A DNA stretch of 63,089 nucleotides from a virus. Taxonomy: Duplodnaviria > Caudoviricetes. The stretch spans positions 1-63,089 of the IMG/VR virus record IMGVR_UViG_3300044729_002069; one strand, written 5' to 3'. The notes beneath the pieces were generated by a model. That model did not search any database. It worked only from the letters and a program-made list of their open reading frames with translations, and was not told the DNA's origin. This document shows positions 1 to 59,065 of the stretch, in pieces. The position numbers and the translations under genes were made by a program. Every line of letters begins with the position of its first letter. Positions within the stretch are counted from its first letter, which is position 1.

Positions 1-1028
1 CCAAAACCTCCATTACTAACAGAGCTGATTACGACGTTTCTTACAGAACTAGCTGTTAATACATAGGCATCGCTGATGGACCCACTATCAAATCCAGCAA
101 ACCTTCCGTCAGCCGTGCCATATCTAGAGCCGCTTGCCAAAATTGTTCCCTCTGTCTGATTGTAAAACCCACTAAACGCACTGCCCGTGATACTCGCCAC
201 ATCTGCGCTGCGGGTGACGGCTGTGGCGGATGTGGGGATGTAGCTGGTGGGGAAGGCGCCGACTTCTACTTGGGCGCCCCAGAGGAATGCTTTGTCGCCC
301 GTTTGAGCATCCACAACTAAGCCACCTATCCTAAATTCCCACGCTGTATTGTTTCCGCTGGCAACGGTAATGTGAATACGAAACCAACCGTTGGCTAATT
401 CTTGAAAGGTAAATGTGCCAACACCATTAACGCCGGAAAAAGTCTTTGAGCTAAAATTGAAATTTGCAAAAGTATCAATTGTCGTTCCACCACTGAAAAA
501 AGCTCTTACCAAGACTCCATTGATATCATCCGATTTTGCAAATACAGAAAAAGTGTATGTTGTGCTTGTTGCTGCTATACCTGACTGAACTACTCGATTA
601 GGCCCCCCGGCCGCAACAGTAAGGCGATCTGCGGTTGTAGCTCCATTGGGGGCAACAGCTTGATTGGCAGCAATGCTGGCAGTGCCTGCCACTGTCCACG
701 TCGTCTGAAACTCCTCACTCCTGAGCAACAAATTCGTCCGCTGCTCCTCCACCAACAACCCCAAGCTCTCCAGCGTCACCGGGTCGTGATCAAACCTCGG
801 CACGTTCGCCGCAACAATCTCGATCTGACCAGCGCTGTTCACGAACGTTCCGTCGCTCGCCCTAGTGAACGTGATCAGTTGCTGCCCGCTGACCGCATCG
901 ACCAGCGATTTCGACTCAGCGAAGCGCAGGTCCAGGGATGGCACAGCACGGGCGCGGCGCCAGAGGTCGTTCTTGGCCCACGAAGGAACCGCAATCGCTC
1001 CTCTTAGGCTAGGAATGGCTATACTCAT
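1..1028 (-). CDS. Virion spike/fibre protein (head-spike/LamG-associated type), truncated by the window edge; not in the ORF track
   Basis: Manual translation from ATG at 1028 (ATGA overlap with upstream stop): MSIAIPSLRG...PSLDLRFA...ITFTRAS...PRFDHDPVTLESLGLLVEEQRTNLL...WGAQVEVGAFPTSYIPT...VTRSAD, hallmark motifs of phage fibre/spike proteins. Confidence 0.8.
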   Translation of the reverse strand, partial: MSIAIPSLRGAIAVPSWAKNDLWRRARAVPSLDLRFAESKSLVDAVSGQQLITFTRASDGTFVNSAGQIEIVAANVPRFDHDPVTLESLGLLVEEQRTNLLLRSEEFQTTWTVAGTASIAANQAVAPNGATTADRLTVAAGGPNRVVQSGIAATSTTYTFSVFAKSDDINGVLVRAFFSGGTTIDTFANFNFSSKTFSGVNGVGTFTFQELANGWFRIHITVASGNNTAWEFRIGGLVVDAQTGDKAFLWGAQVEVGAFPTSYIPTSATAVTRSADVASITGSAFSGFYNQTEGTILASGSRYGTADGRFAGFDSGSISDAYVLTASSVRNVVISSVSNGGF

Positions 1029-4167: not shown

Positions 4168-6176
4168 TACTTCCTAGACACCTCAAGAGTCACGGTGCCG
4201 GTGGCGACGGTCGTTGAGGTAGTGGATTCATTCCGCAGCCACACGTCGATGGCGTCAGTGCGGCATTGACCAAACAGAAATGTAGCGTTAGTGGTGTTTT
4301 TGTCATAAGAAATCTTGTTGATAAAGTCTCCCAGTTTTACCCCAGGGGCTGAGATACTCAGGGTCGCCACATCGTTTGCGGCGATGGTGCCTGGGCTCCA
4401 TGCGGAAGTGAAGGTTGATGGGTCAATACCGGGGGAGTTACGGACCACCGGAGGGAAGTTGTGAGTATCGGAACTCCTTTCTATGATGTTTGTTGGGTTG
4501 TTTAGGGCGTTACAGCCGTCGATTACGACGTTTGTAGGGGTGGCGGCAACCTGAACACCGATACCTGGAATGCCCTCGAAGTCATCGTTATACCAGTCGC
4601 AGTTTCGGATTCGACCAGTGCCGATGGTTATGTCATCAGTTAATCCTATTGCCTCGACTCCAGTAGCTGGCTCAGTCCGTACTCGAATGCCGTACTGAGC
4701 GTTATTCCAGCCGTCGATTATGTAGTTATCAATTAGGATATTTTGTCCTCGCTCTATCAGGATGCCTCCGCGGCCCGAGTTTCTAGCTACGTTGGTGGCT
4801 ATGTTTAAGTTGGTTAGTTGGATGTTGCTTGTACGCAACGAGCTAACCCTAAGAGCGTCTAGCGTGTGACCACCGATTTGTCCTTTTATACTTACACCCC
4901 TTATCGGCCAGCTCTCTGTAGCAGTTGCTCCAGGGCCGGAAATATTGACTCCATACCCATTATTGATGATTTGGAAAGCCGCTCCGCTGAATGTGTATGT
5001 CACCGTGTAGGTGGAGCCCGTAGTTGGTTCGGCTCCAGCAGGCGACCAATCAATGCCGCTTGTTGTTACATTGTAGTCTACTCCTTCCGTGTAGATAGTG
5101 CTCCCTTGCTTGACCTCTTTGACAAGCGTAACCGAGGACTCTGTTAGTAAGTCTGTCCCACCAGATGCGCCTTTTGTAAGTGTATCTGTCTTCTCGTTGA
5201 TGGTCCTCGCTCCACCGCCGGAGATCCACCCATCCCAGAATACACTGGTGATGGTCCCGTTGGTTGCGCTAATGGCCAAGCCCGTCCCAACGCACTTGTC
5301 AGACATGCAGTTCACAAAGGAGACGTTGCCGATAAAGTCTCCGAACTGACTTAGTAGTTGATAGTTGGCATCCTGGGTTCCAGCGATGTGAGCTTGATTG
5401 ACCCAGAGGCCGTCACATCCGATGACCCGAAGACCTACAGACAAAGATGCCCCAGGGAATGGGTTGAGAGATGGACGACTTCCCCATAGGTTAAGGTTGG
5501 AAATATAGTGGTTGGCACCAGGGTAGAACCCAGCAGAGATGGCTCCAATTAAGATGCCAAACCTTCCAGATGGTAGGGCTGGTCTATCTTGAATATCAAT
5601 GTAAAGGTTGTCTGCACGCAGCTCTGCACAGCTCCTGACCTCAATTCCGGCGTTGCCATTTTCGATAAGTATGTCTTTAACATACGGCATCCATATGTGC
5701 CTAAACGAGATGTGGTAGCCGGTTGTCATGGTGTCGGCTGTGGCAACTATTTTGCCATTGATAAGGCCAGTGGGGGAGAATGTATAGCGATAGGTGTCAA
5801 GGCTGGTTATGTCGTAGCCAAAGGTGAACGTCGGTCCATAGTTCGTTGACCTTGCAAGAATTGCTTTGTTTAGGTCGATCAGGATATAGTTTCCTGGGAC
5901 GGTAATTGTTGCCGTTAAGTTGTAAGTGACGCCGTGTTCTAGTTTGACAATGGCAGGGCGGTTGAGTGCTGCCGCTGCATTCACTGCTGCCTGTAGATTC
6001 TGCGTGGGCGTGCCACCAGTGAAGTCCGTGATATTGATTTCTAGCTTGTCAAGGTTGATGTCAATTTCTGGAGTGACCACCTTATCGACAATAGGCTTCT
6101 TCCGCGGCCTTGAAGGTCGAGCATTGTTGTGAACGAAAAGGCTATTGATTGACGCTGGAGGATTAGTGCGGGCCAT
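4164..6176 (-). CDS. Right-handed beta-helix tailspike/depolymerase-like protein
   Basis: 670 aa; T.NLQAAVNAA...G.TYNL N-terminal pectate-lyase-like motif and I/N/G-rich beta-helix repeats; more AT-rich than neighbours. Confidence 0.7.
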   Translation of the reverse strand: MARTNPPASINSLFVHNNARPSRPRKKPIVDKVVTPEIDINLDKLEINITDFTGGTPTQNLQAAVNAAAALNRPAIVKLEHGVTYNLTATITVPGNYILIDLNKAILARSTNYGPTFTFGYDITSLDTYRYTFSPTGLINGKIVATADTMTTGYHISFRHIWMPYVKDILIENGNAGIEVRSCAELRADNLYIDIQDRPALPSGRFGILIGAISAGFYPGANHYISNLNLWGSRPSLNPFPGASLSVGLRVIGCDGLWVNQAHIAGTQDANYQLLSQFGDFIGNVSFVNCMSDKCVGTGLAISATNGTITSVFWDGWISGGGARTINEKTDTLTKGASGGTDLLTESSVTLVKEVKQGSTIYTEGVDYNVTTSGIDWSPAGAEPTTGSTYTVTYTFSGAAFQIINNGYGVNISGPGATATESWPIRGVSIKGQIGGHTLDALRVSSLRTSNIQLTNLNIATNVARNSGRGGILIERGQNILIDNYIIDGWNNAQYGIRVRTEPATGVEAIGLTDDITIGTGRIRNCDWYNDDFEGIPGIGVQVAATPTNVVIDGCNALNNPTNIIERSSDTHNFPPVVRNSPGIDPSTFTSAWSPGTIAANDVATLSISAPGVKLGDFINKISYDKNTTNATFLFGQCRTDAIDVWLRNESTTSTTVATGTVTLEVSRKY

Positions 6177-34757: not shown

Positions 34758-35246
34758 ATGGCCCCCACTCCCATTCTTTTCACATTCACTGGCGAAGAGC
34801 GGCAACTAGCGATGGAGGAAGGCCATCGCAGGCAGGCTGTGAACGAAGCAAAGGGGCTGAGAGGCCGGAACAAGGGGCCAAGGCTTGGCGATGAAGCATT
34901 GAAAGTGCATTTGCTTGGTGCGGCAGGGGAAGTCGCAGTGGCCTCTTTCTTAGGGCTAAAGCATGAGCTGTTCAAAGAGACTGAGGCAAAGCGCGGCAGT
35001 GAGGATCTGCCAGGTATAGATGTCAAAACCCGGTCGAAAAGTTATTACGATTTGATTGTGCAAAAGGGAGAATGCCCTGAGCGAAAGTTTGTGCTTGTGA
35101 CTATTGATAGTGGCGAGACGCTGCTTCATGGCTGGTGCTATGGAGAAGAAGCCATGCAAGATAAGTTTTGGGCTGATCCTGCGCGAGGCAGGCCAGCTTT
35201 TTTTGTACCCCAGTCGTCGCTGCGACCTATGAAGACCCTGCGATGA
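34758..35246 (+). CDS. Hypothetical protein, possible PD-(D/E)XK nuclease fold
   Basis: GAAGE.AVA...D...IDVKT...GW; ATGA-coupled to terL. Confidence 0.65.
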   Translation: MAPTPILFTFTGEERQLAMEEGHRRQAVNEAKGLRGRNKGPRLGDEALKVHLLGAAGEVAVASFLGLKHELFKETEAKRGSEDLPGIDVKTRSKSYYDLIVQKGECPERKFVLVTIDSGETLLHGWCYGEEAMQDKFWADPARGRPAFFVPQSSLRPMKTLR

Positions 35247-36619
35247 CGCTTTCTTGTTCAGATTTTGCGCAGCACGCGCTCGGCCTTTCTCTTTGGGACA
35301 AGCAAAAAGAAATCCTTGACGAGCTGTTTGAGGATAAGATCAACCATGCTGTCTGGTGTCTCGGCAGGCGCAGCGGCAAATCGACCATGGCGGCGGTTGC
35401 GGCTGTCTATATGGCGCTTTGCCAAGATGACTACTTCAAAAAGAGGGTTCGTAAAGGCGAAAACTACTACGTGGTGACGATTGCCAACGACCTCAAGCAG
35501 GCAAAGATTGCTCTTGACTTTATCCGACAGCTCTTAGTCAACAGTCCATTCGAGCAAGAGATTGTGAGAGAAACAGCCCTAGAGATTGAGCTGTCAAATA
35601 AGTGTATCTTCCAGGCAATCCCTGCTTCTGCAAGGGCTTCGCGGGGTAAGGCTGTGGCCTTGGCAGTTTTTGACGAAGTTGCCTTCAGTTTAGATACAGA
35701 CGCCAATAGAGGCGCAAGGGCGCTATTTGATGCCCTTTCTCCTGCCATTGCTCAGTTTGCTCCTTATAGCAAAATCCTTGAACTTTCTTCCCCTTGGCTC
35801 GCAGATGGCGTCTTTCATGAACATTTTATGCAGGCCAAAAGCGGCGAGTTTAAGGGCATGGCGGCGCGCCAAATTCCCACATGGGCTATAAACCCAGGGC
35901 TCAAGTGGGGCTGTGATTTTCTAGAAAATGCACGCAAGAAAGATCCTGAAACGTTTGCTGTAGAGTTTGGCGCCGAGTTCAGGAATAACAACTCAACGCT
36001 CGTTGCCCCAGAAGTGATTGATGCCGCAGTCAACAAGGATCGCACTACGCTCGTTCCCCAGCGTGAACTGATGGGGACTTACGTGTTGGCCCTTGACCCG
36101 GCGCGAGGAGGCAAAGGGCGGGATGACTACGTGGCTTGCATTGTTCACTATGAAGGCGACAGACTTGTAGTTGATAAATTCCACGAATTTGAAGCCAATT
36201 TTGAGATTGCAGGAAAGATGGAAGTAAACATTGCGGAAGTGGAGTATTGGATTGCTGAACAACACAGAATGTACGACTTTGAAAGCATTGCGCTTGACCA
36301 ATACAACAGCGCATCAACCATTCAATCTCTATCTAAGTCATTCCCAATCTGCGAGCTTACGTGGAGTGTTTCAACAAAAATGAAGGCTTTTGGTAAACTA
36401 AAAGAACTGCTAAATTCTGGCCTAATTGAATTGCCCAACCACAAGAAAGCTATTTCTCAGCTCAAAAACCTGGGAGTAATTTACAGGGCAAGTGGACAAT
36501 GGACGGTGACTGGTGGTAAAGAATCGAGCATTGATGACTATTGCTTCTGCCTGGCCGCTGCTATTCTTCAGGCAACAAAAGAGGATTCCATCGACTGGTT
36601 AAACTCGCTTATCCGATAA
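35243..36619 (+). CDS. terL: Terminase large subunit
   Basis: Walker A GRRSGKS, Walker B AVFDE, coupling motif SSP, nuclease ALDPA...D and terminal DD. Confidence 0.9.
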   Translation: MTLSCSDFAQHALGLSLWDKQKEILDELFEDKINHAVWCLGRRSGKSTMAAVAAVYMALCQDDYFKKRVRKGENYYVVTIANDLKQAKIALDFIRQLLVNSPFEQEIVRETALEIELSNKCIFQAIPASARASRGKAVALAVFDEVAFSLDTDANRGARALFDALSPAIAQFAPYSKILELSSPWLADGVFHEHFMQAKSGEFKGMAARQIPTWAINPGLKWGCDFLENARKKDPETFAVEFGAEFRNNNSTLVAPEVIDAAVNKDRTTLVPQRELMGTYVLALDPARGGKGRDDYVACIVHYEGDRLVVDKFHEFEANFEIAGKMEVNIAEVEYWIAEQHRMYDFESIALDQYNSASTIQSLSKSFPICELTWSVSTKMKAFGKLKELLNSGLIELPNHKKAISQLKNLGVIYRASGQWTVTGGKESSIDDYCFCLAAAILQATKEDSIDWLNSLIR

Positions 36620-41565: not shown

Positions 41566-41760
41566 TCAATCGCATAAGCCTTCACGATCTTCGACAGAGC
41601 AGCGGTCTTTCGCAAACAGGATGGCATCGTTGCGACTGCGGAAGTAGTGCGGGCGTCCTTCCCAAGCGATGAACCATTGAAAACCAGGCCGACTGGCGCA
41701 AGGCCACACCTTGATCGCAGACACCATAAATGGCGCGGGAAGGTCATCAAACATGCCCAT
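41566..41760 (-). CDS. Hypothetical protein
   Basis: 64 aa; co-oriented with the RNR genes. Confidence 0.6.
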   Translation of the reverse strand: MGMFDDLPAPFMVSAIKVWPCASRPGFQWFIAWEGRPHYFRSRNDAILFAKDRCSVEDREGLCD

Positions 41761-44439: not shown

Positions 44440-45430
44440 CAGGATTGACTTACCAGAAGCACCTTACCACTTACCACTTTTGCTTGCAAGCCCTGTCGTA
44501 GCAATGCCCTCGCACTTACCACCACCCATCGTTTACAATAGCGTTATGCGCAGCGTGTGTCTACGAGCAGTTGACGTGCCAACGCGCAGTGGTGCGAGCT
44601 GAACTGAGCGGTTACGAGCAGTTCAGGAACCTCCGCGAGCCGCTACGAGCGGGAGCCCCAAGCGTTCCTGACTAAGCGGCTCTGCTCTACCACTCCCTCT
44701 CAACTACCTTCTTCTTCCAGAAGCAGAAGGACGCGGCGAGAGGGAAGCCCCAAAGCGAACGTTCTTAAGCGTCCTTCTTTACGATGCTTTCCTAAGTAAC
44801 CTTCGCTAGGAGCCGAACGAGCAGAGCCACCAGCGTTTCGTACATAAGGCTCCCTCTCCACCACCAATCATCAATCTTCCTTCTTCTGGCGTGAGCGTTG
44901 AGTCTATGGGGAAGGTGTGCTTGCGTGGGGCTGGATAAAGAAAAGAGTTCAATACTATACAAAGAAGAAGAAAACAGCACCGTACTGATCAACGCTCTTG
45001 GGGAGCTACCCGCTCAAACGGTGCTTCCTGCGCGAGAGAACAATGGGAAAGGAAAGGCGGCAAGACATCCCTAATTCCAGAACAAAGCCTTTTCTTAGAG
45101 CGTATATACAACGTATCTACACAATAACTATCAGGAAAACAACTAACTGGTAATTATCAGGAATGCAACTAAAAGAAACAATCGGCCTCTTGAACAATCG
45201 CTAGGGCTACTTCTCGTTCGGCCTGCTACGAACAATCTTATGACCTCACTCCAGCTCGCTCATTGAAGATCGTTCGGTCAGTGACGACTAGCTTCTGACG
45301 GAGTATTGGCACGATGGGCAATGCTTGCTCAGTATTGGCTCTTTCCCATGGTCAGGCAATACTTCATTGTGGGGATGAACCTAGCTATTCCTTTCACTTG
45401 AGAGGGGATTAGCATGTGACATTGACAATT
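44440..45430. other. ~1 kb non-coding region with short repeats (candidate origin/control region)
   Basis: CTTACCA x4 (44449, 44463, 44470, 44515); TACGAGC x3 (44562, 44613, 44644); TATCAGGAA..CAACTA x2 in an A-rich tract; divergent flanking genes. Confidence 0.5.
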
Positions 45431-45438
45431 CAAAAGCT

Positions 45439-46008
45439 ATGGAAAAGCAGTGCTCCAAATGCCGTCTCGTAAAACCACATGAGCTTTTCTCCTTGAACAA
45501 AAGGTCTCATGATGGTTTTAACAACTGGTGTAAAGAGTGCTACAAAGAGTACTACTACGCCAATGCTTCCAAAATCAATAATCAGGCTAAAGCAAGAAGA
45601 CTAACAAATCTGCAGCCCTATACTGAATACCGCCGTCAATACGACAAAGAAAGAGAGAAGGGAGTAACGGGAAAGCTGAGGTCTATGTTGCGATCATCTA
45701 GGAAAAGAGCCAAAGAGAAAGGGCTTGAACATACCCTTAAGCTTGAAGACTTACAAGGATTGATGGTCTCTCATTGCCCCATCAGGCTCAAGAAGTTGTC
45801 ATGGGAAGATTCGGGCACTCAACTGCGCCAGTACGATCCTGATGCACCTTCACTAGACAGGATTGACTCCGCAAAAGGATACATACAAGGTAACGTCCAA
45901 ATTATTTCGCACCAAGCCAACACATGGAAAAATAGCATGACATTGGAACAGGCTCGCATGATTGTCAGATACATAGAAGCTCACTGCGACTGTGGGGATG
46001 AAGATTGA
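45439..46008 (+). CDS. HNH homing endonuclease with N-terminal Zn-finger
   Basis: KQCSKC..K....F......DG....CKEC; PSLDRIDS.KGY..GNVQII...AN..K. Confidence 0.85.
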   Translation: MEKQCSKCRLVKPHELFSLNKRSHDGFNNWCKECYKEYYYANASKINNQAKARRLTNLQPYTEYRRQYDKEREKGVTGKLRSMLRSSRKRAKEKGLEHTLKLEDLQGLMVSHCPIRLKKLSWEDSGTQLRQYDPDAPSLDRIDSAKGYIQGNVQIISHQANTWKNSMTLEQARMIVRYIEAHCDCGDED

Positions 46009-46091
46009 AAACTGCATCGAAATCCCGTTCCGTTTGGGAGGAGATACCCCGAGCAAACCAGCGCGAGGCTGGCTGTTACTGCTCCCTACGC

Positions 46092-46167
46092 TGTAGCGTG
46101 TGATACAGTTTCACACTTTGTAACGTAGATACATTGTAGATACGGGCGAAAATGAGAATGATTCTCC
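46092..46167. promoter_or_regulatory. Cluster of host TF-like sites: NtcA box, HLR1-like repeat, Fur-like box
   Basis: TGTA-GCGTGTGA-TACA (46092-46107); minus-strand GTTACAAA-GT-GTGAAACT-GT-ATCACACG; TGAGAAT-G-ATTCTCC (46153-46167). Confidence 0.6.
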
Positions 46168-46225
46168 CTTTCCCAAAAGAAAAAGCCCACCAACACTCAG
46201 TCAGCAGGCAGGCAAGCACTAACGG

Positions 46226-46417
46226 TCAGAAGCCCTGAAAGCCCTTCCTAAGGGCTTCCGTTGCGCTTCTGAAAGGGGAGCAAGGGGAAGCTTGGCAAAG
46301 CTTGCCAGAAGCGCTGCTAAGGGCTTCCTGCAGGCTTTCGGGAGCTTCTTCCTGCAGGCTTTCTGCAGCAAGCAAAAGAGCGAAAGCCTCAGAAGGGCTA
46401 AGGGAAAGTTTGATCAA
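46226..46417 (-). CDS. Hypothetical protein (compositionally biased island)
   Basis: 63 aa, L/S/A/E-rich; TTGA overlap with the upstream gene. Confidence 0.55.
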   Translation of the reverse strand: MIKLSLSPSEAFALLLAAESLQEEAPESLQEALSSASGKLCQASPCSPFRSATEALRKGFQGF

Positions 46418-46851
46418 GCTTCCCCTTCTGCGGACTTCCTGTTAGGAAGAGAAAGCCATAGGCTTTTGCCTTCATAGTGTTCACTGTATGGGAGACAAGA
46501 AGAAAGGAAGCGTTCTTCCCCTAGGCTTTCCGCAAGCGGGAAAGCCTCACAAAAGAAAGGGAAAAGCCAGGACAGAAGCTCTTTCTGGAAAACCTCAAAA
46601 GCTTCCAAGCGTTCCCAACCTTGCGGCATCTTGTCTAAGCTTTCAGGCCGATAGAACGTTTCAGGATAGACAAAGTAGCCTTGTTGGGAGCAAAGCGAAA
46701 CAAGATGAGAAGCCCTTAAGGTTTCAGGTTTTCTGAAAAGAAGCCCGAACGTAGCACCGCCACCAACAAAAGGGGACAATGTGGCAAGGGCTTTCACTGA
46801 GGGAAGCTCAGCAGAAGCGAAAGAGGGAAGCGAAAGAGAAGGGGAAAGCAT
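46414..46851 (-). CDS. Hypothetical protein (compositionally biased island)
   Basis: Probable start MLSPSLSLPSF at 46851 after a pyrimidine-rich leader. Confidence 0.65.
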   Translation of the reverse strand: MLSPSLSLPSFASAELPSVKALATLSPFVGGGATFGLLFRKPETLRASHLVSLCSQQGYFVYPETFYRPESLDKMPQGWERLEAFEVFQKELLSWLFPFFCEAFPLAESLGEERFLSSCLPYSEHYEGKSLWLSLPNRKSAEGEA

Positions 46852-46882
46852 GGCAGAAAAGAGGGAAAGGAAAAAGGGAAGC

Positions 46883-47050
46883 TCAGCGAGAAAGACAGAA
46901 AGCCTGGAAAGCGTCAAGAAAGAGGAAGAAATCTTCTTCTGACTGATGATTTCCGGCACTTTCAGCGAAAGCATTAAGGGCCTGCAAGGCATATTGCGCT
47001 TCCTTTCTATTGAGAAAAGAGAAGGAAGCGGGAAAGCCGGGATCTTCCAT
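46883..47050 (-). CDS. Hypothetical 55 aa acidic/Phe-rich protein; not in the ORF track
   Basis: MEDPGFPASFSFLNRKEAQYALQALNAFAESAGNHQSEEDFFLFLDAFQAFCLSR; leader CTTTCCCCATG. Confidence 0.55.
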   Translation of the reverse strand: MEDPGFPASFSFLNRKEAQYALQALNAFAESAGNHQSEEDFFLFLDAFQAFCLSR

Positions 47051-47098
47051 GGGGAAAGAAAGAGGGAAAGAGGGAAGCCCGAAAGCTTCCCCATAGGA

Positions 47099-48430
47099 TT
47101 ACTTGCGCTTCTGTACTGGCATCAACAAAGCTCTTTCCTTTCCTTCTGAAAAGGTGATAGGAGCAATGCTATAGGTCCATCCCAGTTCAATCCTTTCCCC
47201 TGAAAAGCTTTTAAGAAGCTTCTCCAAAAAGAAAGCGTTAACCACAAAAGCGCTTTCTTTTTCGCAGGCTTCCTTTGCCGCTTCCTGGTCCTTTTCTTTC
47301 AGCTCCCAGAAGCCGTCGGAAAGCTCGGGCTTTTGCGGGAAAGCCCGAAAGGAAGCCCTTACGCTTGCTTCCTGGCTTCCTATGGGGGCAAGGTCTGGAC
47401 TGTACTTGCTTCCCTTGCCAGTATCTGCCATCAACTCAGCAGAAAGGAAGATTTCCCCTATGGCGCCGTCTGTTGTGATCTGGACGTGGGGATTTCCAGC
47501 GCTTCCTTTCAGGGCAGAAAGCAAAGGGGAAAGAGCAGACAGAAGGGCTTTCCTGTCAACTGACAGTTTGTGCTTTTGTTCAGGGAAGAGCTGTTGATAG
47601 TTGGGGAAGCTTCCGCAAAGGGGAAAGCGCAACGCTACGAAAGAAGAAAGCCCGAAAGAGAAGCGCAAGAAGCCCGCTTCCCGCTTTTCTTGCCAGAAGC
47701 CCAAAAGCTTTTCCCGCTCTTTCTTGACTGTGCAAGCTTCCAGCAAGGGAAGAACAAAAGCGGGAAGCCAGGCAGAAGCCGGGAAGCTTTCGGCTTTCCA
47801 ATAGGAGGGAAGGTCTGCGGGAGCTTCCCTCAGACAGAAACCATCAGTAGCGCAAAAGCTCTTCTCAGAAAAGCCAATCCCACTAAGAGCAAGCTTTGCT
47901 TCGTCTCTTGAGGGAAGCCCTTTCAGGCTGAAAAGCGGAGCAAGCGGGAAGCCTTCCAAAAGCCCTTCCGCTTTCAGGAAAGGAAGCAAGGGAAGCTCTT
48001 TCTCATACAGTTCGTCCTGTTCTGAAAGCTCAAAAGCTTCAGCAGAAAGCGCAATCTTCCCGCCCTTGTCATCACAAAAGCTTTCACCGTTGAAAGATAC
48101 TGTCCCTTTTCCTTTTGTGGCTTTCAGGAAAGAAAGCAAGGGGAAGAAGGGAAAAGAAAGCCGTTTGGCTTCTCCATGGAAAGGAGATAGTTCAGTAGGA
48201 AGCCAGGCAGCGAAAGCGCTTTTGCCTGCAAAAGCTTCCACCAAAAGCCCGGCGCCATCAGCAGAAAGGAAAAGCCGGTCGCCAGTGATCCCGTAAGTTT
48301 GAGCTTTTCTGAAAGCTTCTGCCGCTTTTGCCACGGCCAGAAGCTCAAAAGAAGAGGCAACAAAAGAAAGCATGGGAGCAGAAGCGGGGGAAGCGGGAAG
48401 TGTGGAAAGGGAAAGAGAAGGGGAAGCCAT
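47099..48430 (-). CDS. Divergent DNA polymerase III beta sliding clamp-like protein
   Basis: S.DE.K..LSGI......ATDG..L, G.FPNYQQLFP, V.RK.LL.AL, N..FL...L, ALLMPV all match DnaN motifs. Confidence 0.75.
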   Translation of the reverse strand: MASPSLSLSTLPASPASAPMLSFVASSFELLAVAKAAEAFRKAQTYGITGDRLFLSADGAGLLVEAFAGKSAFAAWLPTELSPFHGEAKRLSFPFFPLLSFLKATKGKGTVSFNGESFCDDKGGKIALSAEAFELSEQDELYEKELPLLPFLKAEGLLEGFPLAPLFSLKGLPSRDEAKLALSGIGFSEKSFCATDGFCLREAPADLPSYWKAESFPASAWLPAFVLPLLEACTVKKEREKLLGFWQEKREAGFLRFSFGLSSFVALRFPLCGSFPNYQQLFPEQKHKLSVDRKALLSALSPLLSALKGSAGNPHVQITTDGAIGEIFLSAELMADTGKGSKYSPDLAPIGSQEASVRASFRAFPQKPELSDGFWELKEKDQEAAKEACEKESAFVVNAFFLEKLLKSFSGERIELGWTYSIAPITFSEGKERALLMPVQKRK

Positions 48431-48468
48431 GGGAAAAAGGGAAAGAGGGAAGGAAGGGGAGAGAAGCC

Positions 48469-48660
48469 TTAAAAGGGGTTACTCCAGTTAAATGCTTGCG
48501 TATCGGTTACTAGGCCCGATTTATTTAAGGCATCCACGTAGTTGTTAAAAGCCTCCCTTTTGGCAGTGACATCCCCTCTCCACTGAGGGGCATTCTCTAA
48601 GTGTTCCCTCCATGCTTGGCGGAAGTTTGCTAACACTTGGGCTTTAGTTAGTTTTTTCAT
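48469..48660 (-). CDS. Hypothetical early protein
   Basis: TKAQ....FR..W......D..AKREAFNNY.D.L.K.G..T..Q...W.NPF. Confidence 0.7.
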   Translation of the reverse strand: MKKLTKAQVLANFRQAWREHLENAPQWRGDVTAKREAFNNYVDALNKSGLVTDTQAFNWSNPF

Positions 48661-48693
48661 GATGGGAGGCCAAACAGGATAAATAACAGCGAT

Positions 48694-49062
48694 CTAGCAA
48701 CAGGCAAGCGCCACACTTGAATAACACTGGTCAATAGGGAACCCGCGACCGGCCAAGTCCGATTCGCGGTAAAAATACAACGCGCAACCCCTAGGGTCGG
48801 CTTGGTGATAGATTAGCCCGCCGCACTTAGCGGCTAAATCTGCCGCTTCTTTAAGTAGCTTTGCCTCCTGATTGGAGATAATGCCACCTTTAAGAGTGCA
48901 GTTGCCGTAACGGTCAAGATAGTAACGGCGAGGGATTGTGCATTCTGCATCGTCCCATTGGATAGCGCCGTTGCATTCAGCCTCTGCCCACTTATGCAGA
49001 CGGCGTTGGATGGCGCACAAGCGGCTGAAAACGGAAGCCGGTAAATCTTTTTTTGTTGTCAT
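48694..49062 (-). CDS. Hypothetical early protein
   Basis: LH.WAE.ECNG...YHQ.DPRGCALY. Confidence 0.75.
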   Translation of the reverse strand: MTTKKDLPASVFSRLCAIQRRLHKWAEAECNGAIQWDDAECTIPRRYYLDRYGNCTLKGGIISNQEAKLLKEAADLAAKCGGLIYHQADPRGCALYFYRESDLAGRGFPIDQCYSSVALACC

Positions 49063-49107
49063 GGAAAAGGAAGAGAAGGGAAAGCCTCACGGTCGCCCGT
49101 GAGGGAA

Positions 49108-49159
49108 GCCGTCGCCCGGGATCGAACCGGAACAAAGCGCCACCAAGCGCAACGACAGG
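49108..49159 (-). ncRNA. Mini tRNA-like element lacking an anticodon arm, in a 5' leader
   Basis: CTGTCG/CGACGG stem; GCGC-TTGGTG-GCGC D-like hairpin; CCGG-TTCGATC-CCGG T-arm. Confidence 0.5.
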
Positions 49160-49313
49160 AAAAAGGGAAAGGCTTTCGCCTTTCCCCCTGGAAGTCGGTT
49201 TATCAAGTTTTCTAGGTTCGCTTGCAAGCGTACCACCGATAAAGGCCATCGCCAGCCCATCGGCTCCACTGATCAGCAGCTCCGATGGGAACGGCCAAAA
49301 TCGCCGCATTCCC

Positions 49314-49825
49314 ATAGGCTGAGCTTGTGCATTAGCTGAGCTTCTGTGATCTGCGCGTTCTGGGATTTTATGATCAGCCTGGCTTATGGGAGCCTGGCAA
49401 GCGTTGGCCACCTAGCATGGCCTGGCGACGTTTCGACGTTCCGTTACATTCCGTCACAATGCGCAGCCCATAACGGCAGCATCATATGGGCATGGCTGAC
49501 GCAAGCGTTCGTTACGTTCCGTCACATAACAGCAGCATGTTATGGGCATTGCCAGGTCAAGCCTGCTGTAACATTCCGTAACATTCCGCCCGATAGTACG
49601 CCTGTACTGCAGTACACCTGTACCATCAGCCAGGCTTATGGCAAGCATAAGCTTCCCTTATGGTACGCCTGTACTATAGGCTCGGCTTATGTTACAGATA
49701 GGCTCAGCTTATGGTACGTCTGTACGCTAGTACGCTTGTTCCATGGTACGCCTGTACCATTAGCGCAGCTCATGGGAGGCATAAGCCAGGCTTATGGTAC
49801 GCCTGTACTAGAGTACGTCTGTACT
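49314..49825. promoter_or_regulatory. Tiled array of cyanobacterial LexA boxes, LysR-type boxes and RpaB HLR1 repeats
   Basis: RGTAC-N3-DGTWCB x8; ATNAG/ATAGG-N5-CTTAT-like x9; GTTACATT-CC-GTCACAAT-like x3. Confidence 0.75.
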
Positions 49826-49879
49826 ATTATGCGGCTTAAAGCATATGCCGATAAAGAAATATGCCGGTAGGAGCATAAA

Positions 49880-50105
49880 AAGCTGGTTCTAGCCTGTCCT
49901 CAAGAAGCTGGTTCTGGCCGGTTCTGAAAAAGCTGGTTCTGGCCTGTCCTCGACAAGCTGCTTCTGGCCGGTTCTAAAAACGATCTTGCCCTGCCCTGTC
50001 CTCAGCCAGTTCTCGTTTCAGCCTGTCATCAAGAAGCCGCCTCTGGCCGGTTCTGAAACGATCCTGTCCTGTCCTGTCCTTAACAAGCTGGTGCTGGCTA
50101 GTCCT
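49880..50105. repeat. 25-bp tandem repeat (4 clear copies plus degenerate ones)
   Basis: AAGCTGGTTCT(A/G)GCC(TGTCCT/GGTTCT) starting at 49880, 49905, 49930, 49955. Confidence 0.85.
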
Positions 50106-50680
50106 CAGCTTCCCCATTGTTCTGCCATTGCTTGAGCAATGCCAAGGTAAGTTGCGCTTCTTATCTTCCACCTATCCTCACTTGGCCCCAGTTTATTTTG
50201 CCCGCTTGGTGTTTGATTGTTCCATCTTCCCGATGGTGACAATTCAAGAATGTCAGTAGGTTGAAGAAGAGGGAGATTCTTTAACCACAGACAAGTTGCT
50301 TTTGCTTCAGCGTGACCAAACTGCCAAGGTTGCACAATTTGATCTGGCTTTCTGATGCGAGAGGAAATAATGCTCACTGGATTTTCTAGGGCAATGCGTT
50401 CAATGGGAGCATTAAGCAGTAGCCGCACAAATTCAAGAGCTTCTGCCTGCTCTTTTTGCTTGTCCTTAAACCATCGTGCTCCACTAACGGCCAAGTGCGT
50501 ACATGGAGGATGAGCAATCATTAAATCCCACCCATCGCTCAAGATGTCGCACACATCTCCTTGATAGTGCGGCCCAGGCTTGTCAGTAGGCAACAAATCA
50601 CAGCTCATTGCTTCGTGACCAGCCGCAATAAAAGCATCACGAACAGTGCCAGAATACTCGCAAGCAACCAATACTTTCAT
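50105..50680 (-). CDS. Short phage C5 cytosine DNA methyltransferase-like protein
   Basis: Start MKVLVACEYSG at 50680; SCDL, DL.IAHPPC, ENPV, QPWQFG, RS.T..GIA.AMA.QW. Confidence 0.8.
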   Translation of the reverse strand: MKVLVACEYSGTVRDAFIAAGHEAMSCDLLPTDKPGPHYQGDVCDILSDGWDLMIAHPPCTHLAVSGARWFKDKQKEQAEALEFVRLLLNAPIERIALENPVSIISSRIRKPDQIVQPWQFGHAEAKATCLWLKNLPLLQPTDILELSPSGRWNNQTPSGQNKLGPSEDRWKIRSATYLGIAQAMAEQWGS

Positions 50681-50819
50681 GGGAAGGGAAGATAGTTGTT
50701 CAACAAGAAAAGGTATTTGCAAAGAGCAATAGGCATCAAACAAGCCATTTCTTTGCTCAGTGGAACTGGCGTAATCTTCTGTGCCATCAGGCAAATGAAA
50801 AGTGCCAAAGCATTGTCAC

Positions 50820-51026
50820 TTAGCTTTTTTGGATTGCGTAGGCATCTTTGACAAAGGTTTTGATAGTGGTGAGGCTGGAGTCAATAATAGTGCCGCCACC
50901 GCCAAGAGCATCAGTTGTCCACCCATAGCGCAAGTGACAGCACCATTCTTTGCTGAATGGTTCACGTTCTAACGACTTCACTCCAGGGAAGGAAAGAATG
51001 GCCTGAGCGAGCTTAGGGAGAGGCAT
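50820..51026 (-). CDS. Hypothetical protein
   Basis: Start MPLPK at 51026. Confidence 0.55.
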   Translation of the reverse strand: MPLPKLAQAILSFPGVKSLEREPFSKEWCCHLRYGWTTDALGGGGTIIDSSLTTIKTFVKDAYAIQKS

Positions 51027-51076
51027 GGCTGTGGAGAGCGAGTTGCAAGCAAGAATAGCAGAAGATTGGTTAGTCC

Positions 51077-51331
51077 TCAAAAGCAGTCGAAGGTGTCCTC
51101 CACTGTCCACTCAGGCCCATAGTCTTCCAGCCATTGCTTCTGCTCTGTTTCCGTCTCTGGCCAGTCCTCAGGCTCTGTGAGCACCACGGCAGTACATAGT
51201 GCTGGAGCCCATTCCTCAGGTTCCCAGCGGCTTGCGGGGCACACACAGCGCATGTCATCAACAATGGCCTCCACGCGCACGGTGCCCCTGTCTGGGTTGC
51301 CTTGCCAACTTTCAATGGAGAGAATCGCCAT
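51077..51331 (-). CDS. Cyanophage-type acidic hypothetical protein
   Basis: ILSIES...V.A.VDD......S..EP.EW.PALC. Confidence 0.65.
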   Translation of the reverse strand: MAILSIESWQGNPDRGTVRVEAIVDDMRCVCPASRWEPEEWAPALCTAVVLTEPEDWPETETEQKQWLEDYGPEWTVEDTFDCF

Positions 51332-51333
51332 CA

Positions 51334-51639
51334 TCAAGCCCTCTTGAACTTGGAAAGGCACAGTTGCCACAATTCTTCGCTCATGCTGCCAGGGCGATAG
51401 AGCCTGTAAGCCCGTGGCGCATAAAACCAGCCGCCTTCGCCATCAGGCTCTGGCTCTCCTTCATCCTGCCAAATGCCTTTACATTCTCCATTGTCGTCAA
51501 ACAAGCCGATTTGATACTCACCATCGGCCATACATTGACGAATGTGGCGAATTGCATCAGTGAGAGAATTGGCTTGATACACGCCTTGCGTGGGTGGGAA
51601 GTAGGGACCGTTGCTGTCGTAGCTGCGGATGATTGCCAT
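51334..51639 (-). CDS. Hypothetical protein
   Basis: Start MAIIRSY at 51639 after a pyrimidine-rich leader. Confidence 0.65.
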   Translation of the reverse strand: MAIIRSYDSNGPYFPPTQGVYQANSLTDAIRHIRQCMADGEYQIGLFDDNGECKGIWQDEGEPEPDGEGGWFYAPRAYRLYRPGSMSEELWQLCLSKFKRA

Positions 51640-51687
51640 GGGGAGGAAAAGAGGGGCAGAAGAGAGGCCCTGGCGGACCATGGAGAA

Positions 51688-55827: not shown

Positions 55828-56171
55828 GGTGTGGGGTCGAGTTCGGCGGCGTCCAACGCAATCAGCCGGTCGAGCTTGTCTTGCTGGGCGGCTTCTAGCG
55901 CTTCAATTCGCTCGCGAAGTGCGTGCATTCCAGAACGGACCATCGCCCAGCAGTTTGCGTCTTCTTTGTCGTATGCCTCCAGCGTCTCCACCCGCCGAAC
56001 GATGGCATCAGTGCAGAACCGACCGCTCTCGGCTTGCTCTAGCTGGTCGGCCTCTAGGGCTTCGATGCGGTCGCGGAGTTCGAGGATGCAGGAAGTCATC
56101 TCCAGCCCTGCTTCTGTCCGTTCGTGCATGTAAGCCCACTGTTCAGGCGTGGCGCGGTGTGGTGTGGTCAT
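55824..56171 (-). CDS. Coiled-coil hypothetical protein
   Basis: Start at 56171; HRATPEQW...CILELR.R.EALEA with internal repeats. Confidence 0.7.
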   Translation of the reverse strand: MTTPHRATPEQWAYMHERTEAGLEMTSCILELRDRIEALEADQLEQAESGRFCTDAIVRRVETLEAYDKEDANCWAMVRSGMHALRERIEALEAAQQDKLDRLIALDAAELDPTP

Positions 56172-56941
56172 GCCGCCTCCTGTGCAACAGACTGCAGCCA
56201 CGCAATCGCATCATCATTGCTGTCGTAAAAGTGCGCAGCAGCATTAGCGCCTAACAACAGCAATCCAGCCATGTATGGGCCATGAAGTTTCTCCAAGACT
56301 TCACCTAATGTTCCAGCCTGGTGAATAGCCCACCCTGCCAAGCAATGAGTAGTACCGCACTCGCTATGCCAGCTTTTCATCTGCAGGATTTGGGGGTGAT
56401 CCAATACATGGCTGGCAACCGCACGCAGACGTTGCTGGGCATCTGCAGCAATTGGCAACCCGTTGGCGCCGTCCAGAATGGCGTAGCTCAGAATGGCGCC
56501 GTGCAGAATGGCGCCGCGCAGAATGGCGTAGCTCAGATTGGCGCCGCGCAGATTGGCGCCGTTCAGAATGGCGTGGCTCAGATTGGCGCCGCTCAGATTG
56601 GCGCCGCGCAGAATGGCGTAGCTCAGATTGGCGCCGCGCAGATTGGCGCCGTTCAGAATGGCGCCGCGCAGATTGGCGCCGCGCAGATTGGCGCCGCGCA
56701 GATTGGCGTAGCTCAGATTGGCGCGGCTCAGAATGGCGCCGTTCAGAATGGCGCCGCGCAGATTAGCGCCGCGCAGATTGGCGCCGTTCAGATTGGCGCC
56801 GTGCAGATTGGCGCCGTGCAGATTGGCGCCGTGCAGATTGGCGTAGCTCAGATTGGCGCGGACGCCAGCAGGATCGCCGGCAAGCCATAGCGTGTGCAGG
56901 CGAAGCGTCTCGCTGATGTTGACTGTTTGGCTGTCAGTCAT
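56168..56941 (-). CDS. Pentapeptide repeat protein
   Basis: Long A(N/I)L(H/R/S/N)(G/Y) array encoded by 15-bp DNA repeats; C-terminal WH..CGTTHC.AGW. Confidence 0.92.
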
Positions 56942-58977: not shown

Positions 58978-59065
58978 CCCTTTGCCATTGTCAACCCTCC
59001 CCTTTGCCATTGTCAACCCTCCCCTTTGCCATTGTCAACCCTCCCCTTTGCCATTGTCAACCCTC
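58978..59065. repeat. Perfect 22-bp tandem repeat x4, each containing TTGACA on the minus strand
   Basis: CCCTTTGCCATTGTCAACCCTC with period 22. Confidence 0.95.

Follow-up and report, generated by a model that had tools for sequence, protein, structure and literature searches.

We propose that the non-coding stretch at 49.07-50.10 kb of a 63,089-base viral DNA is the main control hub of an S-CBS4-like cyanosiphovirus, in which regulators of the host would steer a variable downstream operon, and which is possibly an origin of replication too. Judged from sequence comparison, this reading has, in our estimate, an even chance of being right. The DNA (IMG/VR record IMGVR_UViG_3300044729_002069, here called the window) is the entire record and a single contig. 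An earlier note on it had described the same region as a candidate first-entry module like that of phage T5, flanked by arrays of sites for host transcription factors. We favor a regulatory hub because its boxes are nearly identical to predicted host operators, its position is constant among relatives and its minimal form resembles an operator.

The portal protein encoded in the window is 66.8% identical to that of the Synechococcus siphovirus S-CBS4, the sole named phage above 60%, and S-CBS4 is collinear with the window for the head, tail, terminase and ribonucleotide reductase (RNR) genes. Close DNA matches among named phages were found for a methyltransferase gene alone. The stretch is present in 24 runs labelled as lake or freshwater metagenomes, and almost all of its genes lie on the minus strand. 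Its ends do not overlap by 10-200 nucleotides (nt) and an open reading frame (ORF; 3-1028, minus strand) continues over the junction, and we therefore regard the assembly as circular.

How would such a hub work? In the mechanism we envisage, it stands within a co-directional array on the minus strand, after the conserved marker gene p115 and before an operon of variable cargo. Host LexA, RpaB and a Fur-family protein would bind its boxes, as repressors or co-regulators, and the bound regulators would gate the downstream operon by DNA damage, light or redox state, and metal or oxidative status. Early timing of the operon and the direction of control are presumed. Iterons, which like the palindromes of the hub are peculiar to the phage group, may together with an AT-rich stretch double as a replication origin, and arrays expanded beyond a simple operator may add cooperative repression or titration of host factors. 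In this phage the operon comprises p122, p63 and a cassette with a gene resembling the beta sliding clamp plus one or two ORFs; the cassette stops at the 46.19-kb terminator, next to a mobile HNH gene. Nearly all of its sequence consists of tracts of purines and tracts of pyrimidines, with GpC as the joint.

All matches in the genome to the pattern RGTACNNNDGTWCB (8/8) fall at 49595-49825, a span of 231 nt, against 0.2 expected; of the LexA/LysR tile noticed earlier, the LexA sites alone are thus confirmed. These units fit the cyanobacterial LexA consensus AGTACWNWTGTACT, a 14-bp pseudo-palindrome that is given, together with predicted host boxes, in the excerpted text of PMC3091678. Several of them match the predicted LexA box of recA in Synechococcus WH8102 at 13/14 bases (same excerpt), and since the boxes agree this closely, host regulators that report on the status of the host are a reasonable idea. 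A second class of boxes lies beside the first. HLR1 consists of two (G/T)TTACA(T/A)(T/A) octamers 2 nt apart, and its occurrence in cyanophage genomes has been reported (both from an excerpt of PMC6525291). With at most two mismatches allowed, three of the genome's four HLR1 matches are in the hub, at 49443-49585. Genome-wide 0.68 were expected, and four matches were reached in 0/100 shuffles, so that the HLR1 repeats claimed for this region hold as well.

Is this arrangement a peculiarity of one genome? A tandem two-box pattern was found in at least 120 viral contigs, a sample biased towards boxes. Many of these contigs are kin to the phage in the window (RNR 59-88% and methyltransferase 77-83% identity, and homologs of p115), and their hubs contain iterons, ATGCGCAT-type palindromes, LexA boxes, Fur-type boxes of the 7-1-7 scheme, GCTTAT palindromes, HLR1-type repeats and TGATCA clusters. 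Because this sample favors boxes, a second one was drawn through a profile of p115, a selection independent of boxes that yielded 153 relatives, 80 of which were examined. Up to 3 kb downstream of p115, LexA boxes occur at 0.364/kb and Fur-type boxes at 0.255/kb (67 loci); upstream, both stand at 0.0 (63 loci). Sixty of the p115 loci have at least 2.5 kb of downstream DNA and were reduced to 46 by dereplication, the window included. LexA boxes lie downstream of p115 in 30/46 of these, Fur-type boxes in 19/46 and either type in 32/46. CTRGCCGG repeats, present at least twice, behave similarly, with 13/67 relatives downstream of p115 and 0/63 upstream. The common minimal hub has four iterons, one Fur-type box, 13 nt and one LexA box, a layout that looks like an operator and that has been expanded in some lineages, with eight LexA boxes here and Fur-type boxes in the relative L129.

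Expansion of this kind could also mean that the arrays are decoys, which in replicating phage genomes would soak up the host repressors that bind LexA, Fur-type and HLR1 sites and thereby switch on the SOS, metal or oxidative-stress and high-light regulons. The number of boxes, eight of the LexA type here and at least five of the Fur type in L129, goes beyond a single operator; among the tandem-box matches listed (at least 120 contigs), 32/120 hold at least four LexA-pattern boxes within 400 nt, in arrays of 4-13; and the boxes match predicted host operators almost perfectly. Most loci of the unbiased p115 sample, however, have only one or two boxes (at least two LexA boxes in 15/67, at least two Fur-type boxes in 9/67), and a constant position before an operon suits regulation in cis better than titration. 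We therefore consider decoys improbable as the main function.

The contents of the hub are exchanged even between close relatives. In L129 and L130, the nearest relatives, whose flanks are 96-100% identical to those of the window, five strict and further visible Fur-type boxes upstream of p122 replace the LexA and HLR1 arrays and the methyltransferase gene. There, p122 and p63 are followed by quite different cargo. In L129, the leader ahead of p122 contains a small ORF (5601-5726) that resembles a helix-turn-helix protein, and a similar one precedes the compositional island described below in L001 (368-631); the window has no counterpart. Variation of the same kind is seen within lake populations. 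When contigs of four lake runs were aligned to 44.5-51.5 kb, one joint (45379 to 48469, with 1863 other letters) had the island and the HNH gene swapped out, another (49064 to 51113) had leader, arrays and methyltransferase replaced, and a third (50080 to 51079 or 51081), which predominates in run X4, lacked the methyltransferase. The number of 25-nt iterons differs at a joint from 49850 to 50025. In two lake runs, a joint from 45379 to 46034 lacks the HNH gene and has 31 other letters in its place, which fits a homing element inserted beside the box cluster at 46.1 kb. The genes p122 and p63 are common to several lake populations. As the contigs show separate joints, the cassettes are evidently exchanged independently.

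What follows the hub is no less unusual in its composition. At 46.2-48.46 kb, the steps AC, GT, AT and TA occur at 0.31-0.46 of expectation, equally on both strands, and AA, TT, AG, CT and GC are enriched. Eight 500-nt windows of this island contain 29-56 of the four depleted steps, compared with a genome mean of 90.7 (standard deviation 15.5). Purine and pyrimidine runs have a mean length of 3.19 in the island versus 2.04, and runs of at least eight occur at 26.5/kb versus 5.9/kb. The depletion affects all three pairs of codon positions (1-2, 2-3 and 3-1) as well as the leader, which is non-coding, and we therefore rejected a cause at the level of codons or tRNAs. Its effect on the encoded protein is severe: amino acids all of whose codons need a depleted step (I, M, T, V, Y, N, D and H) make up 15% of the clamp-like protein versus 33% of the portal protein. 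Synonymous choice adds to this: the clamp gene has 87 depleted steps/kb versus 137 +/- 7 for the same protein in phage codon usage (z -7). The earlier description of genes depleted in these steps, one of them similar to a beta clamp, is borne out on both counts. A tandem-repeat origin of the island was rejected, as TRF gives two short, low-score arrays alone.

We compared the DNA of six metagenome relatives (L001-L006) for clamp gene and island. The island is seen also in L001, L002, L003, L005 and L006. L004, a different type of phage whose clamp is 34% identical, is without it, and its clamp gene has 169 depleted steps/kb versus 156 expected with its own protein. In L004 (9567-12099; lineage of portal phrog_145), p122, a clamp gene of normal composition and p63 come in this order, and the ORF that separates the clamp gene from p63 is bracketed by perfect direct copies of a 41-nt repeat (11487 and 11874). 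Where a mean observed-to-expected ratio of the four steps of at most 0.5 in at least three 400-nt windows defines an island, one lies downstream of p115 in 11/46 dereplicated relatives, the window counted, and upstream in 0/46. Mean run lengths are 2.7-3.6 across the islands versus 2.04-2.13 in their flanks, and in 8/10 islands G runs accumulate on the template strand. Islands of other relatives encode other genes, for instance GP88-like proteins (PF17338, phrog_1617). The recoding is a constraint on DNA or RNA rather than on protein; it goes with a location past the hub and not with gene identity. Since it depends on position and is asymmetric between strands, it suggests a structural role for the island's DNA or RNA next to the hub. 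More specifically, the first 2-3 kb past the hub may be forced, whatever the genes, into long purine and pyrimidine tracts whose purines fall on the template strand, with amino-acid composition and synonymous codon choice both overruled. It could serve as an R-loop or triplex zone that starts replication or as a leading segment given special treatment on entry or in first transcription, gated by swappable arrays of LexA, Fur-type and RpaB boxes on its flanks. We put this forward tentatively and think it rather unlikely; if it were true, such position-specific recoding, linked to the sensing of host state, would be novel in kind.

Could the hub be, above all, a replication origin? Its iterons of 23-25 nt would then bind a phage initiator, the AT-rich stretch would melt, the palindromes and boxes would build or regulate the complex, and the island would be part of the initiation zone through R-loops or a triplex. 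The 25-bp repeat claimed earlier is present, and its direct copies adjoin the 40 nt of the hub that are richest in AT, a layout that recurs in relatives. Iteron-type origins are known from lambda ori and plasmid oriV, and the hub is like them in having several direct repeats of 20-25 nt beside an AT-rich stretch and near a replication gene, the downstream clamp. GATC is denser in the hub than in the genome (5.76 versus 3.14/kb), and the island follows position rather than gene, with its G runs mostly on the template strand. Unlike those origins, the hub contains no DnaA box, a result that tells against any origin function, also as a second role of a control hub, and no initiator gene was identified. 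When 30 ORFs of the window were scanned against PHROGs, no DNA polymerase, primase, helicase, integrase or initiator was annotated among them. The AT-rich stretch is modest at 57-67% AT, and the turning points of cumulative GC skew lie at about 34-35 kb and 57-58 kb, away from the hub. Sense transcripts of the island are pyrimidine-rich, which disfavors R-loops, and an antisense promoter is conjecture. We judge an origin as the main function unlikely; it can be combined with the control-hub reading.

The repeats and the deviant block beside them were also the basis of the first-entry proposal. Phage T5 has a first-step-transfer (pre-early) region with injection-stop repeats, and by analogy the island and hub would enter the cell first, pause at the repeats and have their DNA gated, pulled or shielded by host factors bound to the arrays. 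The likeness lies in a repeat-rich non-coding region beside a compositionally deviant block of presumably early genes, which recurs in relatives, and in box clusters that flank the island at either end, in the window as well as in L268, L324 and L331. T5's first-step segment is poor in restriction sites, and this part of the analogy fails. Six-mer palindromes are at 15.5/kb in the island of the window versus 7.1/kb elsewhere in the genome, AAGCTT has 17 copies versus 0.8 expected from the rest of the genome, and in a comparison of 11 islands with their flanks, 6-mer palindromes were enriched in 10/11 and 4-mer palindromes lower in only 3/11. Restriction avoidance as a cause of the island is rejected on the same grounds, as palindromes are not depleted. 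Among the ORFs at 45.4-50.8 kb, PHROG and Pfam annotation revealed no T5 pre-early function (host shut-off, second-step transfer or dNMPase); the families matched there are HNH, clamp, phrog_336 and methyltransferase. The module had been expected to stay together in relatives, and it does so only in part. Boxes and island recur by position, in the fractions given above, whereas the named genes are unlinked and gene cassettes vary: at the 80 p115 loci, the clamp gene is found in 0/80, the methyltransferase gene in 3/80, and p122 and p63 in 2/80.

Do genome ends speak for entry at this point? The GenBank record of S-CBS4 (L007/L008) ends between a p115 homolog (69192-69383) and a homolog of the window's ORF 41566-41760 (at 27-209, where the record has no annotation), that is, exactly at the position of hub and cargo in the phage studied here. 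A 98%-complete relative, G001, also breaks at the hub position. Assembly breaks in repeats explain these ends equally well as a physical end. Contig ends are no commoner downstream of p115 (less than 2.5 kb in 20/80 loci) than upstream (27/80). In G002, what is recorded as a "direct terminal repeat" is an assembly overlap of 127 nt, and the hub of this relative is in mid-record; G005 has an imperfect end redundancy of 95-96% within the RNR region; and the record ends of G003 and G004 fall in tail and head genes. In T5 the segment occupies a genome end and a long terminal repeat; the window is a circular assembly with a gene over the junction and no end repeat. The first-entry model is unsupported, and we hold it to be very improbable.

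The same ends could mark a packaging site, pac or cos, whose iterons bind the small terminase subunit and whose TGATCA clusters modulate cleavage. Cleavage of the P1 pac site is modulated at TGATCA-type clusters, and both iterons and TGATCA motifs are present in the hub and in relatives, two near-complete genomes of which end at its position. The terminase genes, though, are at 34758-36619, about 13 kb away, and repeats together with population heterogeneity suffice to explain assembly breaks where many alternative joints exist. A packaging site thus appears to us scarcely probable.

Which genes surround the hub? On the minus strand, the order is p115, two small ORFs, the methyltransferase gene, the hub, p122, p63 and a CT-rich leader, then the clamp-like gene, a 226-amino-acid ORF, a possible 63-amino-acid ORF, a terminator-like hairpin and a box cluster. 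The HNH gene on the plus strand and the island genes on the minus strand are transcribed toward each other at 46.0-46.2 kb with the hairpin between them, as the earlier note had it in claiming convergent transcription, and the two small genes it listed are there as well. Coordinates are collected in the table.

Table. Features of the control hub, the compositional island and their surroundings in the window.
Feature	Position	Strand	Remarks
HNH / endonuclease VII-type homing endonuclease gene	45439-46008	+	mobile insertion; phrog_1035 E 1.9e-27
Second small box cluster	46092-46167		TGTA-N8-TACA and Fur-family-type palindrome
Terminator-like hairpin and T run	46209-46185	-	closes island operon
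Compositional island	46200-48468	-	includes CT-rich leader 48431-48468; long purine/pyrimidine tracts, coding strand pyrimidine-rich
Uncertain 63-amino-acid ORF	46226-46417	-	TTG start overlaps stop of preceding gene; no PHROG match
226-amino-acid ORF	46414-47094	-	travels with clamp gene
Beta sliding clamp-like (DnaN-like) gene	47099-48430	-	phrog_947 E 4.6e-12
p63, 63-amino-acid gene	48469-48660	-	phrog_336 (family without known function)
p122, Cys-rich 122-amino-acid gene	48694-49062	-	first gene past hub
Non-coding hub	49063-50104		1,042 nt; between methyltransferase gene and p122
Structured leader	49063-49200	-	GNRA-loop hairpin 49085-49104; T-arm-like stem-loop 49116-49130
Structured leader, further parts	49165-49186	-	terminator-like hairpin and T run at this position; CT-rich stretch ahead of ATG
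Three HLR1-type (RpaB-box-like) direct-repeat sites	49443, 49511, 49568	+	1, 2 and 2 mismatches
Eight LexA-box-like palindromes	49595-49825		GTAC-N4-GTAC cores; alternate with ATAAGC-N3-GCTTAT-type palindromes
Most AT-rich stretch of hub	49822-49876		two ATATGCCG repeats; 57-67.5% AT, maximum over 40 nt
25-nt iterons	49877-50106		core CTGGCCGGTTC
DNA methyltransferase gene, accessory cassette	50105-50794 (probable start 50683)	-	phrog_757 E 5.8e-74
p115, conserved marker gene	51334-51681	-	precedes hub in relatives; 153 relatives in viral_contigs

The clamp-like ORF was examined in several collections. Of ten matches in a profile search against PDB, eight are beta clamps (best E 2.2e-5). NCBIfam models of DnaN give 24.5 and 21.4 bits, far below their cut-offs of 443 and 137.65, and Pfam gives no match. 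A tblastn search with the clamp gene found nothing in the named-phage collection or in viral_contigs; the family has 24 members in the protein collection, of which 11 aligned members share the skewed composition down to 40% identity. With bacterial DnaN the ORF shares a profile over domain III and the middle, and its PHROG family is named "DNA polymerase processivity factor". It differs from DnaN in its length of about 443 amino acids with an extra N-terminus rich in Ser, Pro and Leu, in a composition forced by the DNA constraint, and in having no polymerase gene among the 30 ORFs scanned, which do include the clamp, RNR, a family labelled RNase E and glycosyltransferases. Homologs of the 226-amino-acid ORF follow the clamp gene in L001 (61% over 157 amino acids) and L002 (49% over 202 amino acids); Pfam, PHROG and Atlas searches gave nothing usable for this ORF, nor did an Atlas search for p122. 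Homologs of p122 are 66% identical in L004, directly upstream of the clamp gene, and 90% identical in L129/L130, and those of p63 are 69% identical in L004 and 84% in L129/L130. The gene past the iterons had been called a C5 methyltransferase. That it belongs to a methyltransferase family holds, by its match to phrog_757 ("DNA methyltransferase") alone; the C5 class finds no backing in Pfam (E up to 1), NCBIfam or PDB, none of which gave a match, and homologs are named cytosine methyltransferase in some GenBank records. Elsewhere in the window, a 22-nt unit stands in four perfect tandem copies between minus-strand ORFs (58978-59065) and may be a set of iterons or operators, and a 15-nt period is repeated 26.5 times (56463-56859) within the ORF 56168-56941, whose only matches are PHROGs of unknown function.

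The leader between the arrays and p122 had been described as structured and as holding a mini tRNA-like element. Its hairpins are indeed strong (fold z -2.1). ARAGORN found no tRNA or tmRNA, Rfam had no match at gathering score and, with E relaxed to 10, none that resembles a tRNA, and we reject the tRNA-like element: hairpins and a T-arm-like stem-loop are what is present. In L129, the leader at 49063-49200 is replaced by a different sequence.

At the far side of the island, the cluster at 46.1 kb had been described as NtcA-, HLR1- and Fur-like. NtcA sites have the form GTA-N8-TAC and are followed by a -10 box some 22 nt further on. The cluster has a perfect TGTA-N8-TACA at 46092-46107 (two in the genome versus 0.23 expected), and, read directly from the letters, a TAN3T-type hexamer follows 24 nt downstream on the plus strand. 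Boxes of the Fur, Zur and PerR type are 7-1-7 inverted repeats. The palindrome GAGAANNATTCTC at 46154-46166 is a single copy in the genome; read directly, the sequence at 46153-46167 fits TGAGAATNATTCTCA, a form of the 7-1-7 scheme, at 13/14 specified positions, and the palindrome recurs beside LexA-like boxes in relatives. Candidate NtcA-like and Fur-like sites thus lie where they had been claimed, and the HLR1-like site is absent from this cluster at up to two mismatches. A consensus of the E. coli type for Fur has no match with at most three mismatches anywhere in the window. Second clusters of LexA-like and HLR1-like boxes lie beyond the far end of the island in L268 (about 4440-4480), L324 and L331 (0.5-0.7 kb past the island), like that at 46.1 kb in the window.

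A number of results weigh against the control-hub reading. Neither a LexA nor a Fur-type box is found within 5 kb in 14/46 dereplicated relatives, and S-CBS4 itself is without hub or cargo. Eight tandem boxes exceed the needs of a simple operator. A simple sigma-70 scan of 44.5-52 kb returned four promoter-like sites against 3.9 expected, and as this is no excess, we do not place a promoter in the hub. The label Fur-family rests on the general 7-1-7 scheme; when bacterial genomes were scanned for the Fur-type palindrome, the matches listed spread over many phyla and are uninformative on cyanobacteria. Folding of the island mRNA is barely above controls (z -1.06 versus -0.11 to -0.78) and does not account for the recoding. 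Finally, HLR1 sites (at most two mismatches) are no rarer on the upstream side of p115 in relatives (0.464/kb) than on the downstream side (0.427/kb), so that the use of HLR1 is a general trait of this phage group rather than one of the hub. In the 3 kb before p115, the loci L259-L328 have intergenic HLR1 sites with 0-2 mismatches, all shown antisense, which suggests a wide use of RpaB-type boxes.

How does the proposed control hub compare with known uses of host regulators by phages? In CTXphi, GIL01 and, through tum, coliphage 186, lytic or accessory genes are directly under host LexA. The phage in the window resembles them in having predicted operators of host LexA within a regulatory region, an arrangement that in those phages couples to SOS. 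It departs from them in its up to eight tandem boxes, in the added RpaB-type and Fur-type boxes and iterons, and in the lack of an integrase among the 30 ORFs scanned. Alphaproteobacterial phages with CtrA boxes have been discussed in terms of "lytic deferment" (excerpt of PMC9437464). As far as the excerpts on these phages and on the HLR1 cyanophages extend, the common ground is that sites of a host global regulator are borrowed, with the programme timed to host state, and the differences are several regulators per hub, their arrays, box types that are swapped among close relatives, and a linked recoded block. Among the top-ranked matches of our literature search, neither stacked, swappable arrays of LexA, Fur-type and HLR1 boxes in cyanosiphoviruses nor islands of purine and pyrimidine tracts in any phage are described.

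Host-regulator boxes in phages are known in kind, from the LexA-controlled phages, the CtrA-box phages and the HLR1 cyanophages. A conserved hub in which the operators of several host regulators are stacked, expanded and swapped would exceed the known use of host regulators by phages. The island, for its part, reveals a constraint at the level of DNA or RNA that is strong enough to remodel the amino-acid make-up of a sliding clamp and that follows genome position. The hub would give a handle on how freshwater and estuarine cyanophages read the DNA damage, light and metal status of picocyanobacteria, and the control-hub reading bears on light-dependent infection and delayed lysis.

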